Positions 46,818 to 52,928 are shown, counted from the stretch's first letter. The stretch is 64,000 nt of DNA from an uncultured Chloroflexia bacterium (GCA_963842695.1 CAWJHK010000006.1:163761-227760); one strand, 5' to 3'. Notes: generated by a model from the letters alone, not told the origin. Numbers and translations: made by a program.

Positions 46818-46870
46818 GTCCTCACGCCCGCGTCGACCGTCGCGACGTGGCGCCGTTAGACTGCCACTAC

Positions 46871-47485
46871 GTGCCCGATCCCAGCGACCCACTGACGCCA
46901 CCTGCCCCGACCCGTCGCCGCCGCAGCCCGAAATTCGTGCTGCCCGAGCACCATCACGACGAGCGATCGAGCGAGCGCGCCGAGCAGCACATCGAGGCGT
47001 TCCTGACCACCCCCGCCTCGCCGCGTCGCCGGCGGAAGGCCACCGGGCGAGCTCGGCGACCGGTCGAGCTCGACACGCGACCGGACTGGACGGCCGCCGT
47101 CCGTCACGAGGCAGCGCGCCACGACCGCTACGGTCGCCCGGCCTCCATCCTGCTCATCGAGCTGGCACATTGTCCGGTCGCCGACTCCCGCGATCGGCTG
47201 GCGCGGGTGGTCGCCGATGCGATCCGGGCCGAGGCGCGTGAGACCGACCGCGCGGTCCGCTACGGCGCCGCGAGCTTCCGGATGCTGCTGCCCGAGACCG
47301 GCGACCGGGCGGCGAGGACCGTCGCGGACCGGCTCGCGCGCGCCGTCCGAGCGACTACGGACGCGTCCCTCAGCGGCGATCTCGCGATCGACGTCGTCAC
47401 GCCGTCGCGTTTCGGGACGCTCGAGGAGGCCCTGGCCGACGCCGAACGCCGCCTCACCGTAGGAGCGGTCGAACCCGTCGCCTGA
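46871..47485 (+). CDS. degenerate GGDEF-domain protein
   Basis: E.ARHDRYGRP.SILL, RETD-x5-GAASF in place of GGDEF, LLPET, ADRL, ADAE. Confidence 0.75.
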   Translation: MPDPSDPLTPPAPTRRRRSPKFVLPEHHHDERSSERAEQHIEAFLTTPASPRRRRKATGRARRPVELDTRPDWTAAVRHEAARHDRYGRPASILLIELAHCPVADSRDRLARVVADAIRAEARETDRAVRYGAASFRMLLPETGDRAARTVADRLARAVRATTDASLSGDLAIDVVTPSRFGTLEEALADAERRLTVGAVEPVA

Positions 47486-47500
47486 GGTGCCGCGCCGGCG

Positions 47501-47890
47501 CTATTCGACAAGCGTCTTCACGAGGTGGTCCAGCTCGGAATCGGGGTCGTCGCACAGGCCGGTGTGCACCTCCGAGGCCTGGATCATCGTGCTCGACGGC
47601 GAGACCAGCCAGTGGAATCGCTCCGCCTGGCCGAGCCGGGCGATCGGCCCGGCGTCCGGGTCGCCGGCCGCGATCCGCTCGATGGCGGACAGGTGCGGCC
47701 GGATGACCGCCGGGTCGAGATCCGGGGCGAAGGCGGCCATCCGCCGCTCATCGAGGGCGATGCGCGCCGCCAGGTAGCGACGCGGGCGGCAGAGCAGGAT
47801 CACGCCGACATTCAGGCACTCGCCTCGCTCGACACGCGGGTGCACCCGGACGATCGCGTATTGGAAGACGTTAGGCGGCGCGTCGGGCAC
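47501..47890 (-). CDS. DUF3037 domain protein
   Basis: FQYAIVRV.PRVERGE..NVGV, ERFHWLVSPSST.IQ.S.VHTG. Confidence 0.9.
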   Translation of the reverse strand: MPDAPPNVFQYAIVRVHPRVERGECLNVGVILLCRPRRYLAARIALDERRMAAFAPDLDPAVIRPHLSAIERIAAGDPDAGPIARLGQAERFHWLVSPSSTMIQASEVHTGLCDDPDSELDHLVKTLVE

Positions 47891-48656
47891 GATCCGCCTC
47901 CTCGACGAAGGGTCGTGGAGCCTCGAGCCGCCGGCCGATGTAGCGCACGTAGGCGCGGCGCTGGGCGGTCGCGTCGCCCGCCAGGGGATCGTCCGGCAGC
48001 CAGGCGTCGGGAAGCGCGGCGACGATCCCGTCGAGGAGCTCTTCGTCGATCCGCCCGGCGTGACGGTCGTCGGCATCCGCGATCGACCCGGCATACGGCA
48101 GCAGCACGTGGTCGCCGATCCGCTCGAACGGCCTGCGGGCGTGGTCGTCCGGGTCGCGCCAGGTGTGATGGATGTACAGCGCGGCCCCGTGGTCGATCAA
48201 CCACGGCCGGCCGTGCCAGACGAGAAGGTTCGGGTTCTGCGCGGTTCGGTCGGGGTTCGTGACGAGCCCGTCGAGCCAGACCACGTCGGCCGCGAACCCG
48301 GGATCGATCGAGCTGCGCGCCGCGACGGCCGGGTTGAACGCCAGGGCTCCGGGCAGGAAATCCATCCCGAGGTTGAGCCCGCCGCTGGCCCTCACGAGGT
48401 CGTGGATCTCCTCGTCGGGCTCCGCATCGCCGAGGGCCGGATCGAGCTCGACCGCGACGAGGTCGGGCACGGGCAGACCGATGGCCCGGCCGATCTCGCC
48501 GGCCAGCCACTCGGCCACGAGGGCGCGTGGTCCCTGCCCGGCGCCGCGAAACTTGACCACGTAGAGGCCGTCGTCGTCGGCCTCGACCAGCCCGGGCAGC
48601 GAGCCGCCCTCGCGCAGGGGCGTCACGTAGCGCGTCGCGACCACCGTCCGCATCAC
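47871..48656 (-). CDS. HipA-like kinase
   Basis: RYVTPLREGGSLP, VVKFRGAGQG, NPDRT..NPNLL, LIDHGA. Confidence 0.88.
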   Translation of the reverse strand: MMRTVVATRYVTPLREGGSLPGLVEADDDGLYVVKFRGAGQGPRALVAEWLAGEIGRAIGLPVPDLVAVELDPALGDAEPDEEIHDLVRASGGLNLGMDFLPGALAFNPAVAARSSIDPGFAADVVWLDGLVTNPDRTAQNPNLLVWHGRPWLIDHGAALYIHHTWRDPDDHARRPFERIGDHVLLPYAGSIADADDRHAGRIDEELLDGIVAALPDAWLPDDPLAGDATAQRRAYVRYIGRRLEAPRPFVEEADRARRAA

Positions 48657-48745
48657 GCCGCAGAGCGTAGCCGCCGGATCGTCGCCCCGCGCAGGCGGTC
48701 CGCGACCGTCGGACCGTCGGGCGAATCGGGTCGACCCGGAGGATT

Positions 48746-48779
48746 CCTGACAGGTTCTGGCAGGTATCCCCGCTATCGT
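48746..48779 (+). promoter_or_regulatory. putative WYL-regulator operator plus -10 box (copy 1)
   Basis: ccTGACAggttcTGGCAggtatc-cccgc-TATCGT. Confidence 0.7.
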
Positions 48780-48828
48780 CAGACGCACGAGATCGATGGC
48801 GATCGACGCGATGCGGGAGGCACCCACG

Positions 48829-49113
48829 ATGTTCCTCGAACTGTCCGCCCGGTACCTGCTGGAACGCCACCAGGCGCTGGAGAACGACCCGACCCTCGCC
48901 CTCCGCGTGGAGCTCCGGCGCCGCACCGAAGCGGCGGCCGACGAGACGGATCGCTCAGCGGGGATCGGCGGCGTATCGCTCAGCGACGGCACCGGCCGTC
49001 GCCGCCACACGGGCACGGACCTCGGGCGGCTCCAGCACTTCGACCCATCGACCTGCACCGAGCAGTACGCTGGCCACCTCATCCGGCCAGTCCATCCGCA
49101 GCCGGAGCCGTAG
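48829..49113 (+). CDS. small hypothetical protein downstream of the operator; 3' part antisense to the WYL gene
   Basis: GGGAGG-N8-ATG; MFLELSARYLLERHQALENDPTLALRVELRRR; GC3-biased over the first ~40 codons. Confidence 0.55.
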   Translation: MFLELSARYLLERHQALENDPTLALRVELRRRTEAAADETDRSAGIGGVSLSDGTGRRRHTGTDLGRLQHFDPSTCTEQYAGHLIRPVHPQPEP

Positions 49114-49929
49114 CCAGCCTTCGGGATCCGGGTCGGTCAGGGACTCGGCTGCCTGGACCACCGCGTAGCCGGCCGCTCTCCGCAGGTCGTCGAGGCGATC
49201 CGGGCGCACTCGGACGACGACCTCGATCCTGGGCGCGTCGCGCTCGAACGCGGCGGATGACTCGGTCCAGTACGAGCCGAGGTCGAAGCCGGCGGGTCGC
49301 TCGAACGTCGTCCCTTCGAGCTCGACGGCCGCGACGCGGGACACCCGGTACGTGCGCAGCTGGCCGTCGACCGACGCCACGACATACCAGATGCCGCCCT
49401 TGAGCACGACGCCGAGCGGGTCGATCACACGGCGGACGACGGCGTCCTCGCGGTAGTAGTCGATGACGCATCGCGTCCCGTTCCAGACCGCATCCGACAG
49501 TGCCCCGAGGTGAGGGACCGGCTGGCTGGCATGGAACCACTCCCCGGCGTCGAGATGGAAGCGCTCGACCAGGCGGGAGGCGCGCGTCCGGAGCTCGCTT
49601 GGGAGCGAGGCGAGGACCTTGAGCTGCGCGGCGGCGACGACCGTGCCGAGCCCGAGCTCCGCCGCCGGGCCTGGGATCCCCGCCAGGAACAGGGCCTCGG
49701 CCTCCTCGCCGGTCATGCCGGTCAGACGCGTCCGGTAGCCGTCCACCAATCGGATGCCGCCATGGGTGCCGCGCTCCGCGTAGATCGGGACGCCCGACGC
49801 GCTGAGCGCCTCGACGTCGCGATGGACGGTCCGCTCCGAGACCTCGAGCTCTCGGGCGAGCTCGGCAGCCGTCAGCTGCCCCCGTGATTGGAGGAGCAAC
49901 AGGAGCGACACGAGACGGGACGCCCGCAT
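48955..49929 (-). CDS. YafY-family HTH-WYL transcriptional regulator
   Basis: MRASRL...LARELEVSERTVHRDVEAL HTH, PLGVVLKGGIWYVVA, RTYRVSRV, VLEPPEVR (WCX). Confidence 0.93.
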   Translation of the reverse strand: MRASRLVSLLLLLQSRGQLTAAELARELEVSERTVHRDVEALSASGVPIYAERGTHGGIRLVDGYRTRLTGMTGEEAEALFLAGIPGPAAELGLGTVVAAAQLKVLASLPSELRTRASRLVERFHLDAGEWFHASQPVPHLGALSDAVWNGTRCVIDYYREDAVVRRVIDPLGVVLKGGIWYVVASVDGQLRTYRVSRVAAVELEGTTFERPAGFDLGSYWTESSAAFERDAPRIEVVVRVRPDRLDDLRRAAGYAVVQAAESLTDPDPEGWLRLRLRMDWPDEVASVLLGAGRWVEVLEPPEVRARVAATAGAVAERYAADPR

Positions 49930-49935
49930 CCGGAC

Positions 49936-49968
49936 ACGATACGCCGATACCTGCCAGAAGTTGTCATG
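49936..49968 (-). promoter_or_regulatory. putative WYL-regulator operator plus -10 box (copy 2, own promoter)
   Basis: Minus strand caTGACAacttcTGGCAggtatc-ggcg-TATCGT-N6-ATG. Confidence 0.7.
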
Positions 49969-49995
49969 TTCGTCGCATTGCCGCGGCCGGACTGG

Positions 49996-50865
49996 TCAGA
50001 TCTGGCCCTTGAACGTGTCGCAGCCGTTCGGGTCGCCCGCCTGGTAGCCGGCGGAGAACCAGTTCTGTCGCTGCTGCGATGAGCCGTGGGTCCACGAGTC
50101 CGGATCGACCTCTCCGCTCGTGGCCTCCTGGATCCGGTCGTCGCCGACGGCCGCAGCCGCGTCCAGCGCGTCGGCGACCTGCTCGTCGGTCACCGGCTGG
50201 AGGTAGCCCGTGCTGGCCGCGTGGTTCGTCCAGACGCCGGCGTAGCAGTCGGCCTGCAGCTCGACCCGGACGGACCGGCCCTCGGCGCCCTGGCTGTTCG
50301 ACGCGCCCTGGAGCGCGCCGAGCAGGTCCTGGACGTGGTGGCCGTATTCGTGGGCGATGACGTAACCCTGGGCGAGCGACCCGCCCTTCGCCCCGAACCG
50401 TGTGCGCAGCTCCTTGAAGAACTCGAGGTCGAGATAGACGAGCTGATCGGGTGGGCAGTAGAACGGGCCGCTCGACGAGCTGGCCGTACCGCAACCGGTC
50501 GAGGTCACGCCGGAGAAGATGACCGTGTTGGCCGGGGAGTACGTCTCGCCGGCGGCCGCGAACGTGTCCTTCCAGTAGGCCTGGATGCTGTTCACGAAGC
50601 CGAGGATCCGGCAGTCGTCCCGATCGTTCGCGTCCTGCCCGGTCTTGCAGTCGGTTGCGAGCTGCGAGCTGCCCGGACCCTCGACCGCGCCCGGCGCGAG
50701 CCCGGTGCCGAGGGCGCCAGGGTCGCCTCCGAGAAGCAGGTACGCGATCAGGAGCACGATGCCGAGGCCGCCGCCACCGATCGCGAGGCCCCCGGCACCG
50801 CCGCGCATGCCGCGGCGGTCGGTGATCTGGCCCGGATCGAGTGACGCGTTGGGATTGAAGGTCAT
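49996..50865 (-). CDS. neutral zinc metallopeptidase (YpfJ-like)
   Basis: GPFYCPPD, AHEYGHHVQ, ELQADCYAG, VGDD.IQ, THGS. Confidence 0.92.
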   Translation of the reverse strand: MTFNPNASLDPGQITDRRGMRGGAGGLAIGGGGLGIVLLIAYLLLGGDPGALGTGLAPGAVEGPGSSQLATDCKTGQDANDRDDCRILGFVNSIQAYWKDTFAAAGETYSPANTVIFSGVTSTGCGTASSSSGPFYCPPDQLVYLDLEFFKELRTRFGAKGGSLAQGYVIAHEYGHHVQDLLGALQGASNSQGAEGRSVRVELQADCYAGVWTNHAASTGYLQPVTDEQVADALDAAAAVGDDRIQEATSGEVDPDSWTHGSSQQRQNWFSAGYQAGDPNGCDTFKGQI

Positions 50866-51025
50866 GGAAGAGCCTCACACTGGGGTTGAGGGGCCCATCC
50901 TACGAGCGGGGTCGTGTCGCGCCCGCTGCCGTGCACGGCCAGCGCGTCTCGCAACCGTGTTGCGAACCGGCGGTGCGCGATTGACATCTGTCCATGACCT
51001 TTTCAGGACAGATGGCAGGTCCTCA

Positions 51026-51192
51026 CCGGTGTGGCCGCCCCGTACGGTGTGCACATCGCGAACGGACCGCCGGACACCGAGACTCTCGACCGGCGGCGCG
51101 TCGACCCTCCGGCGGGATGCCGGGCGGCGGCGGAGCCGGCAAACCTGCCTCAACGGCGGTCCGTCGACGACCTCTCTCGCAACCACGACCGG
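51026..51192. ncRNA. candidate structured non-coding RNA (long irregular hairpin)
   Basis: Nested complementarity ccggtgtgg/ccacgaccgg and acggaccgccg/cggcggtccgt in a gap with no convincing CDS. No Rfam family recognised. Confidence 0.3.
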
Positions 51193-51216
51193 CCATCCGC
51201 CTGCACGGATGGCCGG
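51189..51216 (-). terminator. hairpin after the PAC2 gene
   Basis: ccggccatccg-cctgca-cggatggccgg. Confidence 0.6.
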
Positions 51217-51225
51217 TTCGTGCGC

Positions 51226-52071
51226 TTACCCGCGCGTCGCGCCGCCCTGGTCGCGCAGGAACCGCTCGATGTCCGAGATCAGGTCGTCGCCGGACGGCAG
51301 GCGCTGCTCGTCGTACATCGCCTCGAGCCGCTCGACGTAGTTCCGGGTGGTGTCGTCGACGCCCGCCGCCGTGTCCAGCCGGTCGCGCAGCTCCCGCGAC
51401 TCGTCGGCCAGCTCGTGCGCCGGGATCTCCGCACCGAGATGGGTCCCGAGCGCCCGCAGCAGCTCGAGCGCCGCCGTGGCATACGGACCCGAGACGTAGT
51501 GGGGGACCTGCGCGAAGTAGCCGAGGGCCGGGATGCCGGCGGCTGCCACCTCGATCTCGAGCGCCGAGACGAGCGCGGACGGGACACGCAGGGTCCCTTC
51601 GGGTCCGGCCATGACGTCGCCCCGGAGCAGGCCTGGTGACGCTTCCGTGCCGATGATCGGGACCGGCCGGGTGTGGGGGACCGCGGCGGGGATCGCTCCG
51701 AGGCTGATCCACTGGGCTACGCCCAGCCGGCCGGCGAGCTCGACGATGTCGGCGGTCAGCGCCCGCCAGCGGTAGTCGGGCTCGGGACCGACAAGGACCA
51801 GCACGTCGCGCTCGTCGAGTCGCGTGCGCCGCAGGACGAGCTCGTGCCAGGTCAGCGTCGTCAGGCGCCCGTCGACGATCTCGAGCGGTGGGCGGCGAGC
51901 CCGGTAGTCGAACAGGCGATCGGCATCGAACGACGCCACGACCTCCCCGTCGTCGGCCAGGATGGCCAGCGCCGTCGTCGCCGCGGAGCCGGCGTCGACC
52001 CAGCCGTCGAACGCGGCGATCAGGACCGGGTCGATCAGATCGCGGCCGTCGGCCAGGGTGTACAGGCTCAC
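51226..52071 (-). CDS. PAC2 family (proteasome assembly chaperone-like) protein
   Basis: AFDGWVDAG.AA, FDYRARRP, GPEPD.RW, VPHTRP, VPHYV, LE..YD; TATGCT-N6-GTG. Confidence 0.9.
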   Translation of the reverse strand: MSLYTLADGRDLIDPVLIAAFDGWVDAGSAATTALAILADDGEVVASFDADRLFDYRARRPPLEIVDGRLTTLTWHELVLRRTRLDERDVLVLVGPEPDYRWRALTADIVELAGRLGVAQWISLGAIPAAVPHTRPVPIIGTEASPGLLRGDVMAGPEGTLRVPSALVSALEIEVAAAGIPALGYFAQVPHYVSGPYATAALELLRALGTHLGAEIPAHELADESRELRDRLDTAAGVDDTTRNYVERLEAMYDEQRLPSGDDLISDIERFLRDQGGATRG

Positions 52072-52118
52072 CGTCGAAGCATAGGCGACACGCCGGACCG
52101 GTTCCGCGAAGAGGACCG

Positions 52119-52928
52119 TCAGCCGCGGCAGAGGACCTCGCCGTGGAGCACGGTGAACCAGCCGTCCGGCTGCGCCGCCCATTCCCGCCAGGCAGCCGCG
52201 ATCGCCGCGAGCTCGGCGCGCGTGCTCGCCCCCCGCTCGAGGGCATGGGTCGCGAACGCGGAGTCGGTGACCCGGTCCGCCCACAGTCCGCCCCACCAGG
52301 CCCGATCCTCGGGCGTCGCGAAGCACCACACGGAGGCCGACGGCGACACGTCGCCGAACCCGGCCGCGTGCGCCCAGGCCAGGAGGTGGCGACCGGCGTC
52401 GGGCTCGCCTCCGTTGGCGCGGGCGATCTCCTCGTACAGGTCGCGCCAGCGGTCGAGGCGAGGGTCCGCCGGGAACCAGGTCATCGCGGCGTAGTCGGAA
52501 TCACGTGCGGCGACAAGTCCTGCCGCGCTGCAGACGCGCCGCATCTCCCTGAGAGCGGCCACGGGGTCGGCGAGGTGCTGGAGGAGCTGGTGCGCGTGGA
52601 CGACATCGAACGAGTCATCCGCGAAGTCGAGGGCATAGGCATCGCCAGTCCGGAACTCGAGGTTGGCGAGGCCCGCCGCGGCCGCCTCGGTCCGAGCGAG
52701 CACCAGTGGCGACTCCTCGCGGTCGATGCCCACGACCCGGCCAGGAGCCAGCCGGCGCGCCAGGTCGACGGTGATCGTTCCTGGTCCGCATCCGACGTCC
52801 AGCAGGCCGAGCCCGGGCTCCAGGTGCGGCTCGAGATACGCCGCCGAATTGGCCATGGTCCGCCAGCGATGGGAGCGGAGGACGCTTTCGTGATGGCCGT
52901 GCGTGTAGGTCTCGTCCGGCGCCGTCAT
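52119..52928 (-). CDS. class I SAM-dependent methyltransferase
   Basis: YTHGHHESVLRSH, LLDVGCGPG, FDVVHAHQ. Confidence 0.9.
   Translation of the reverse strand: MTAPDETYTHGHHESVLRSHRWRTMANSAAYLEPHLEPGLGLLDVGCGPGTITVDLARRLAPGRVVGIDREESPLVLARTEAAAAGLANLEFRTGDAYALDFADDSFDVVHAHQLLQHLADPVAALREMRRVCSAAGLVAARDSDYAAMTWFPADPRLDRWRDLYEEIARANGGEPDAGRHLLAWAHAAGFGDVSPSASVWCFATPEDRAWWGGLWADRVTDSAFATHALERGASTRAELAAIAAAWREWAAQPDGWFTVLHGEVLCRG

Follow-up and report, generated by a model that had tools for sequence, protein, structure and literature searches.

The window examined here is a stretch of 64,000 nucleotides (nt) of DNA from an uncultured Chloroflexia bacterium (GCA_963842695.1 CAWJHK010000006.1:163761-227760). 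It contains a gene for a WYL-domain transcription factor and, running towards it on the opposite strand, a small unannotated gene, and each of the two genes is preceded by a copy of the same operator/promoter cassette. Comparison of orthologous loci indicates that this two-gene module is conserved in Ca. Limnocylindria (Chloroflexota). It is rather likely that the WYL factor binds a palindrome at both promoters and activates them in response to a ligand, and that the convergent small gene encodes an effector.

WYL regulators, which sense nucleic-acid signals, are widespread, and few of them, namely PafBC, DriD, SiwR, BrxR and CapW, have known operators and targets. The module would be a very compact regulon from an uncultured soil lineage, predicted in full, with two promoters and one operator code. 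A search of sequencing runs pointed to metagenomes from soil and rhizosphere and to a single metatranscriptome, which contained 7% of the words sampled. Its features of interest are the rule of a 10- or 11-nt spacing between operator and -10 box, the switch between leaderless and leadered small genes from clade to clade, and an unannotated small-protein family as the putative sole target. A literature search, the coverage of which did not extend to subscription journals, found no description of such a module of a WYL regulator and a small protein.

Two operators and their promoters

The operator/promoter is duplicated. The earlier note on this window, made from its sequence alone, had described two cassettes facing each other across the WYL gene. 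Both are seen in the sequence, and a repeat search of the window lists them as an inverted repeat of 21 nt with 90% complementarity (op1 at the regulator gene and op2 at the small gene; Table 1). With up to three mismatches allowed, the 21-nt core matches two sites in the window and none in 100 dinucleotide-preserving shuffles. The genome scan for the motif that the note had suggested returned the same two sites only from the whole assembly of 2,513,233 bases, which is 59% complete and has a G+C content of 71%; the backward pattern, used as a control, had no match. A position-weight matrix built from orthologous operator sites gave the two sites 28.5 and 27.3 bits in the assembly and the next best site 19.5 bits, and the best match on the reversed sequence, which served as a control, reached 19.9 bits. 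Since the two sites are unique in the window and in the assembly, and none was found in the controls, the cassette pair is not a product of chance. As far as the assembled 59% of the genome shows, the regulon seems to comprise only these two promoters.

Each cassette consists of an imperfect palindrome of the type TGACA-N5-TG(G/T)CA, a short spacer, and a predicted -10 box of the form TANNNT. The regulator's recognition site is probably this palindrome extended by GGTA-type flanks. Judged by the sequence itself and by a sigma-70 scan, both promoters lack a suitably spaced -35 hexamer. The scan of positions 47400-50100 for sigma-70 promoters and terminators found nothing, and a search of positions 47000-51200 against Rfam gave no match at E<=1. 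The palindromes had been placed 11-12 nt upstream of the -10 boxes; the distance is in fact 10 nt in op1 and 11 nt in op2. If transcription starts 7 nt past the -10 box, as predicted, the palindrome would extend from -37 to -23 at the regulator promoter and from -38 to -24 at the small-gene promoter, and the promoter-proximal half-site would lie at about -27 to -23 in both. The cassette on the minus strand had been taken for the regulator's own promoter, and its geometry agrees with autoregulation; 6 nt separate the -10 box from the regulator ATG at 49929 on the minus strand.

Orthologues of the regulator with 61-80% identity are encoded in 25 of the 36 other genomes of the genus. Class-wide, they were found in 154 of 401 genomes, a tally that includes five genomes flagged as unpublished, and the counts by family are 75/137 in f1 and 78/153 in f4, with none in f3 (0/92) or f2 (0/16). 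Promoter layouts were counted over 122 loci, which are 108 distinct loci after the removal of identical copies. The op1 operator and its -10 box lie upstream of the regulator orthologue in 86 of the 122 loci. Among these 86, the spacing is 10 nt in 73, and the -10 box is 6 nt (55 loci), 7 nt (12) or 8 nt (18) away from the start codon, which together make up 85 of the 86. Alignment at the start codon gives, for nearly all orthologues, the order palindrome, about 10 nt, TANNNT, 6-8 nt, and ATG or GTG. The regulator mRNA is predicted to be leaderless because the -10 box ends 6-8 nt before the start codon. A convergent second operator is located 100-350 nt beyond the regulator stop codon in 89 of the 111 loci with enough sequence downstream of the regulator, and it is separated from its -10 box by 11 nt in 84 of the 89. 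Operators occur in both families of the class that have the regulator, and the spacing of the operator to the -10 box is constant although the sequence of the spacer changes.

The palindrome is found beyond the phylum as well. Homologues of the regulator from Streptomyces (L161-L163), with 52% identity, keep TGACA-N5-TGTCA, and their start codon lies 7 nt after a -10-like hexamer. They have neither the second operator nor the small gene, and a divergent DUF3224 gene adjoins them. The presence of the operator in the Streptomyces homologues without the small gene argues that the operator code is older than its small-gene target. Close homologues of the regulator were also found in records titled Steroidobacteraceae, Polarisedimenticolia and Proteobacteria (L112, L117 and L169). 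L112 and L117 have the full module, and in L169 only the operator upstream of the regulator was seen. For the contigs of L112 and L117, mis-binned Limnocylindria DNA seems more likely than gene transfer.

Two loci of the class have unusual regulator genes. In genome G001 (L027/L031), the orthologue looks split, with residues 1-136 at 92% identity and residues 135-322, in an adjoining frame, at 55%. It may be a frameshift or a recombinant, and the small open reading frame (ORF) of this genome is free of stop codons for 600 nt. Genome G007 (L029/L017) has a second WYL paralogue of 46% identity on the same strand about 1 kb upstream of the orthologue, with a PAC2-family gene in between, and this paralogue has a different palindrome of its own, TGACACTGGATGACA.

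The small gene and its protein family

The plus-strand cassette had been proposed to precede an unannotated target gene, and a small ORF in this position is conserved across relatives and convergent with the regulator gene. The ORFs behind the second operator share a conserved N-terminus, MxxxELARxIxADREREIxxxLRxRRLL. With a profile built from 23 members of the family, a matching ORF that runs towards the regulator gene was found at 72 of 98 distinct loci, and the loci of those 23 members are among the 72. Searched against the 401 genomes phylum-wide, the profile had eleven matches, of which eight abut a regulator gene and the other three are weak. Database matches of the small protein, 86 in a clustered collection, are all annotated as hypothetical. 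At E<=1e-3 it is matched by 312 representative clusters, 24 of which reach 1e-10, and a search of the Atlas with the small protein returned unnamed clusters only. None of the 23 members has a real match in Pfam, and the family has no match in PHROGs. The best profile match in the Protein Data Bank (PDB) has an E of 0.069 and covers a coiled-coil segment, and the small ORF of the window has no match in NCBIfam or PADLOC.

Structure prediction indicates that the small protein, about 55-95 amino acids (aa) long, is composed of a single conserved N-terminal helix followed by a disordered basic tail. The AlphaFold model contains one helix of residues 2-28, with a predicted local distance difference test score (pLDDT) of 89-97, and then a basic tail of low confidence. 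The helix is charged, and no membrane segment is predicted. The proteins of the window clade have a 7-residue N-terminal extension, MYLELSA, which seems to have arisen by duplication of the first motif.

By comparison with its relatives, the small ORF of the window is a diverged member of this helical family. It is the positional orthologue of the other members, with the same position, operator, orientation and Shine-Dalgarno sequence. It has lost the DRERE core and is missed by the family profile, and hhalign of the window-clade ORFs against the family gave a probability of 8% and an E of 0.004. Because the hhalign probability is only 8%, its membership rests on position and on bridging sequences. 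These are intermediate forms (MYLELSAMHLMELHRAIEADRQRE...) in relatives at about 77% regulator identity, which score about 1e-7 against the family profile and align residue by residue with MFLELSARYLLERHQALEND... of the window.

The divergence of the window ORF also bears on the possibility that, in the window clade, it is no longer a functional protein gene, and that its promoter mainly drives an antisense RNA over the 3' end of the regulator gene, with feedback through convergent transcription or duplex RNA. Loss of the DRERE core and the failure of both profile and hhalign to detect the window copy would fit such an RNA, as would the ratio of non-synonymous to synonymous polymorphism (pN/pS), which is 0.79 in the window clade versus 0.53 over the first 30 codons elsewhere, values that are only indicative because synonymous sites are near saturation (pS ~0.54). 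The frame extends 159 nt into the regulator gene (48955-49113) with no terminator-like site. This overlap agrees with the antisense tail of about 160 nt described earlier, which holds for the window and is specific to its clade; the overlap varies in length from none to about 160 nt. The variable length is itself in keeping with a non-coding role. On the other side, every member of the clade retains a Shine-Dalgarno sequence and an open frame, and the bridging sequences still score about 1e-7 against the canonical family. The G+C content at codon positions 1, 2 and 3 of the non-overlapping part of the ORF is 0.81, 0.43 and 0.90, which is typical of coding sequence and resembles that of the neighbouring genes. 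We regard the antisense RNA as an unlikely main product. As an addition to a small protein, antisense interplay between the converging transcripts is plausible, since the two units converge and the scan did not find a terminator-like site.

The leader of the small gene differs among clades. In some (L013, L016, L018-L025) the gene is leaderless, with the ATG 6-7 nt past the -10 box. In others (L003-L005, L008, L010, L012, L015), including the window clade, a leader of 40-50 nt precedes it and contains a Shine-Dalgarno sequence, which is retained in all leadered relatives. The predicted leader of the window folds with -10.7 kcal/mol, at a z-score of -1.13. When 14 leadered relatives were folded singly, most had a stem of 6-8 bp of the GCGAUC...GAUCGC type at the start of the leader, and the z-scores ranged from +1.07 to -4.35 and were mostly modest. 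RNAalifold found no consensus structure in a MAFFT alignment of the 14 leaders, in which the hairpin was misaligned. The hairpin was seen in L004, L005, L008, L091, L094, L102, L103, L115 and others, and in L103 the stem is at the same place with a different sequence.

Possible activation or repression by the WYL regulator

Domain matches identify the regulator as a three-domain WYL transcription factor with a winged HTH domain, a central Sm-like WYL domain and a WCX domain. The Pfam matches are to HTH_11 (residues 9-58, 4.5e-17), WYL (140-203, 1.9e-16) and WCX (233-315, 6.6e-16), and the secondary structure of the AlphaFold model (pLDDT 75.9) agrees with these domains. The best matches of the model in Foldseek are DriD (8tp8, 1.8e-14, 22-23% identity) and PafBC (9fnd, 3.8e-13), ahead of CapW (1.3e-8) and BrxR (1.6e-7). 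The WYL domain contains the segment RTYRVSR, in which R192 and R195 do not vary among 36 homologues and R198 is at least 90% conserved. From the RxxR pattern, these arginines may be the counterparts of the residues that bind single-stranded DNA (ssDNA) in DriD, PafBC and SiwR.

The arrangement of the two promoters can be compared with those of three activators. PafBC of Actinomycetota is described as acting by sigma adaptation, at promoters that combine a canonical -10 box with an element at -23 to -28, contacted by the HTH domain, and that have no -35 element (PMC8635444). The promoters of the window likewise have a -10 box without a -35 element, and their half-site at -27 to -23 compares with the PafBC element. 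PafC is in addition a weak sequence match of the regulator (E 6.5e-4). PafBC is, however, a heterodimer of two tandem WYL proteins with a non-palindromic site, about 150 genes under its control and a place in the proteasome locus, whereas the window regulator is encoded by one gene and has two sites, which are palindromic. A homodimeric HTH-WYL-WCX activator, SiwR (MSMEG_1359), is reported from Mycobacterium smegmatis; its site, an imperfect palindrome of about 19 bp, lies between -35 and -10, and it needs a -26 element and the arginines of its WYL domain (PMC10693628). It shares with the window regulator the three-domain architecture and the palindrome upstream of the -10 box, a likeness drawn from its description. 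The targets of SiwR are divergent genes of the DinB superfamily, in contrast to the convergent small gene of the window. Orthology to SiwR was considered and rejected, as the closest Streptomyces homologues adjoin DUF3224 and HTH_3 genes and not DinB genes. DriD of Caulobacter crescentus is described as a homodimer with a 20-bp pseudo-palindromic site that overlaps the -35 position of weak promoters (PMC12340889), and its targets include the small protein effector DidA (PMC12340889, PMC12041258). DriD has several targets and no self-regulation, whereas the module of the window comprises two promoters, one of which is the regulator's own. The small-protein family of the window has no sequence relationship to DidA, a membrane-bound division inhibitor, and differs from it in the lack of a predicted membrane segment. 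On the predicted starts, both promoters have the layout of PafBC/SiwR/DriD-type activation, with an element at about -26 and a -10 box without a usable -35.

Based on these comparisons, a mechanism can be proposed. The HTH-WYL-WCX factor, presumably a homodimer, would recognise the TGACA-N5-TG(G/T)CA palindrome. A ligand on the WYL domain, probably a single-stranded nucleic acid, would lead to the activation of both promoters and thus to positive autoregulation of the regulator together with induction of the small protein, which we infer to be an effector. The transcripts of the regulator and the small gene would run into each other's 3' ends. The lack of a -35 element, the half-site at -27 to -23, the base-exact spacing and the rank of DriD and PafBC among the fold matches favour activation, and we lean moderately towards activation over repression of both promoters.

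BrxR and CapW are WYL repressors, and the same module and operators could serve a regulator of their type, which would repress itself and the small gene until released by a ligand. The fold class is the same according to Foldseek, BrxR and CapW have a palindromic operator in their own promoter region, and they resemble the window in adjoining a defence system, for which the window has a candidate pair. In both cassettes the operator and the core promoter overlap, regulators most commonly act on their own promoter as repressors bound to an operator there, and an ssDNA-bound structure of CapW exists according to the title of its PDB entry. However, the fold matches to CapW and BrxR are weaker (E of 1e-7 to 1e-8, 11-15% identity) than those to the activators DriD and PafBC, which are closer in both fold and sequence, and the linkage to defence genes is not conserved in relatives. 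A simple occluding repressor would not need a spacing kept to within 1 bp across about 40% protein divergence, and neither promoter has the -35 hexamer at a usable spacing. We think repression of this type somewhat unlikely.

Several points weigh against the ligand-dependent activator with a small effector, in addition to the diverged sequence and weak constraint of the small ORF of the window. The -10 boxes and transcription starts of both cassettes are predictions, and an operator at -37 to -23 suits a repressor equally well. The fixed spacing could in part come from shared descent. Some orthologous loci, such as L006, L007 and L021, are without the small gene and its operator, and, the genome being only 59% complete, its unassembled part may hold further operator sites. 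DriD was reported not to autoregulate (PMC12340889), and no mention of autoregulation by SiwR was found in the available part of its description (PMC10693628).

We speculate, with considerable doubt, that the small protein is a new stress effector or a feedback partner of the WYL regulator, in a self-amplifying circuit of two face-to-face promoters, the operator code of which is common to the DUF3224-linked homologues of Streptomyces. If this were the case, the module would be the first WYL regulon to be described in Chloroflexota and would suggest a function for a family of unannotated small proteins that has at least 312 clusters. The module also provides a test case for whether activation of the sigma-adaptation type extends beyond Actinomycetota and whether such activators autoregulate.

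Table 1 Positions of the module and its neighbours in the window
Feature	Position	Strand	Details
Regulator promoter/operator op1	49968-49936	-	whole cassette caTGACAACTTCTGGCAGGTATCGGCGTATCGT
op1 palindrome	49966..49952	-	TGACAACTTCTGGCA; followed by a 10-nt spacer
op1 -10 box (predicted)	49941..49936	-	TATCGT
Small-gene promoter/operator op2	48746-48779	+	whole cassette ccTGACAGGTTCTGGCAGGTATCCCCGCTATCGT
op2 palindrome	48748-48762	+	TGACAGGTTCTGGCA; followed by an 11-nt spacer
op2 -10 box (predicted)	48774-48779	+	TATCGT
op2 transcription start (predicted)	~48785-48787	+	
HTH_11-WYL-WCX transcription factor	48955..49929	-	324 aa; domains from Pfam
Predicted 5' untranslated region of small gene	48785..48828	+	hairpin ~48785-48814; Shine-Dalgarno GGGAGG 48815-48820
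Small ORF	ATG 48829, stop 49113	+	94 aa; last 159 nt antisense to the regulator gene
HipA_2-family kinase	47871..48653	-	260 aa; Pfam HipA_2 4.2e-18; PADLOC PDC-M66A 2.2e-23
DUF3037 protein	47501..47890	-	129 aa; GTG start; Pfam DUF3037 2.1e-43; PADLOC PDC-M66B 8.7e-10
Flanking genes of the module			HhH-GPD glycosylase, F420H2-dependent reductase, degenerate GGDEF-like, zinc peptidase, PAC2-family (Pfam)

The kinase pair and other neighbours

Divergently from the small gene run the genes of a HipA_2-family kinase and a DUF3037 protein, which overlap by 20 nt at the kinase stop and the DUF3037 start. Judging from gene content and position in relatives, the pair is most likely a separate kinase/partner system of the PDC-M66/DS-6 kind and only a neighbour of the module. 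In PDC-M66, DS-6 and 'HipAD', the HipA-like kinase is reported to be needed for anti-phage defence, and deletion of the DUF3037 gene to be toxic (PMC12548924, PMC13092281). The pair of the window resembles these systems in its overlapping genes of the same direction and in its matches to PDC-M66A and PDC-M66B. Its DUF3037 protein covers only positions 4-129 of the 281 of the PDC-M66B profile, and, in contrast to the validated DS-6B and Retron-Sda1, the 129-aa partner is without the C-terminal extension with the DUF1829/DNA-binding region. The pair lies in a conserved chromosomal neighbourhood, unlike the variable defence islands of PDC-M66/DS-6.

The earlier note had proposed that the WYL protein might also control this pair, as a toxin-antitoxin-like or defence pair, through the small-gene operator. 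WYL regulators of defence systems are known in BrxR and CapW, and the short form of the DUF3037 protein, without the C-terminal half of the profile, would be in keeping with such control. In the window, the kinase start is 302 nt from the regulator stop and 95 nt from the small-gene operator. The kinase -10 box that the note had put about 75 bp from the plus-strand cassette is TACGCT (48669..48664, minus strand); it lies 78 nt from the palindrome edge and is a consensus match only, which the promoter scan did not support. Counted from the candidate kinase start, the centre of the operator would be at about -98, which speaks against control from this site. The kinase may be leaderless, as the codon that precedes its ATG is a GTG (48656) 7 nt past TACGCT, and the proteins of relatives begin MMRTVV..., in agreement with this earlier start.

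In the nearest relatives, a desaturase-like gene separates the kinase from the operator, and it is because the window has lost this gene that its small-gene operator comes as close as 95 nt to the kinase. In relatives, the space between the kinase and the regulator holds a desaturase-like gene, a DUF4112-like gene or both. Of 20 same-genus loci, 19 contain the kinase, which starts 29 nt to 5.4 kb away from the regulator stop. No operator was found near the kinase start in these 20 loci of 10-17 kb, in which the operator-like sites were those of the two module promoters and three stray weak matches far from the kinase.

The regulator and the kinase pair share a neighbourhood in much of family f1, and within the genus of the window they are 0.03-8 kb apart. 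The regulator directly abuts the pair in G013, where the kinase starts 29 nt downstream, and in G325 and G364, where the DUF3037 gene ends about 80 nt upstream. These short distances are what control of the pair would lead one to expect. Outside the family of the window, the pair is independent of the regulator: the distance between the regulator and DUF3037 is 0.2, 1.6 and 1.4 Mb in G202, G227 and G329, and in many genomes the two are on different contigs. DUF3037 was found class-wide in 129 of 401 genomes (f1 82/137, f3 10/92, f4 36/153), a tally that includes one unpublished genome, and its distribution differs from that of the regulator in f3 (10/92 versus 0/92) and f4 (36/153 versus 78/153). 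A conserved linkage of regulator and operator to a defence operon, as for BrxR and CapW, was not found in the relatives. With independent distributions, variable intervening genes and no operator at the kinase in relatives, control of the pair by the WYL protein is very improbable, and the proposed linkage does not extend beyond the family. This corrects a tempting inference, as a WYL gene beside a HipA-like/DUF3037 pair need not regulate the pair.

In two of the loci, the surroundings of the regulator are reduced. The small gene has been lost from G013 (L036) along with its operator, which leaves 29 nt between the regulator stop and the start of the kinase. In G016 (L035), not only the small gene and its operator but also the kinase pair are missing, and the regulator abuts the GGDEF-like gene.

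In 13 of the 20 same-genus loci, the gene immediately upstream of the regulator is of the PAC2 family (proteasome assembly chaperone-like; 51226-52329 in the window). It recalls the position of pafBC beside proteasome genes; a place of the regulator in a proteasome locus was rejected, as no proteasome genes were found at 52-64 kb of the window. On the other side of the kinase pair, positions 46847-47485 encode a 212-aa protein with a partial GGDEF match at residues 116-173 (E 1.6e-5), which may be a degenerate cyclase domain. The place of this protein beside the DUF3037 gene is conserved across the genus.

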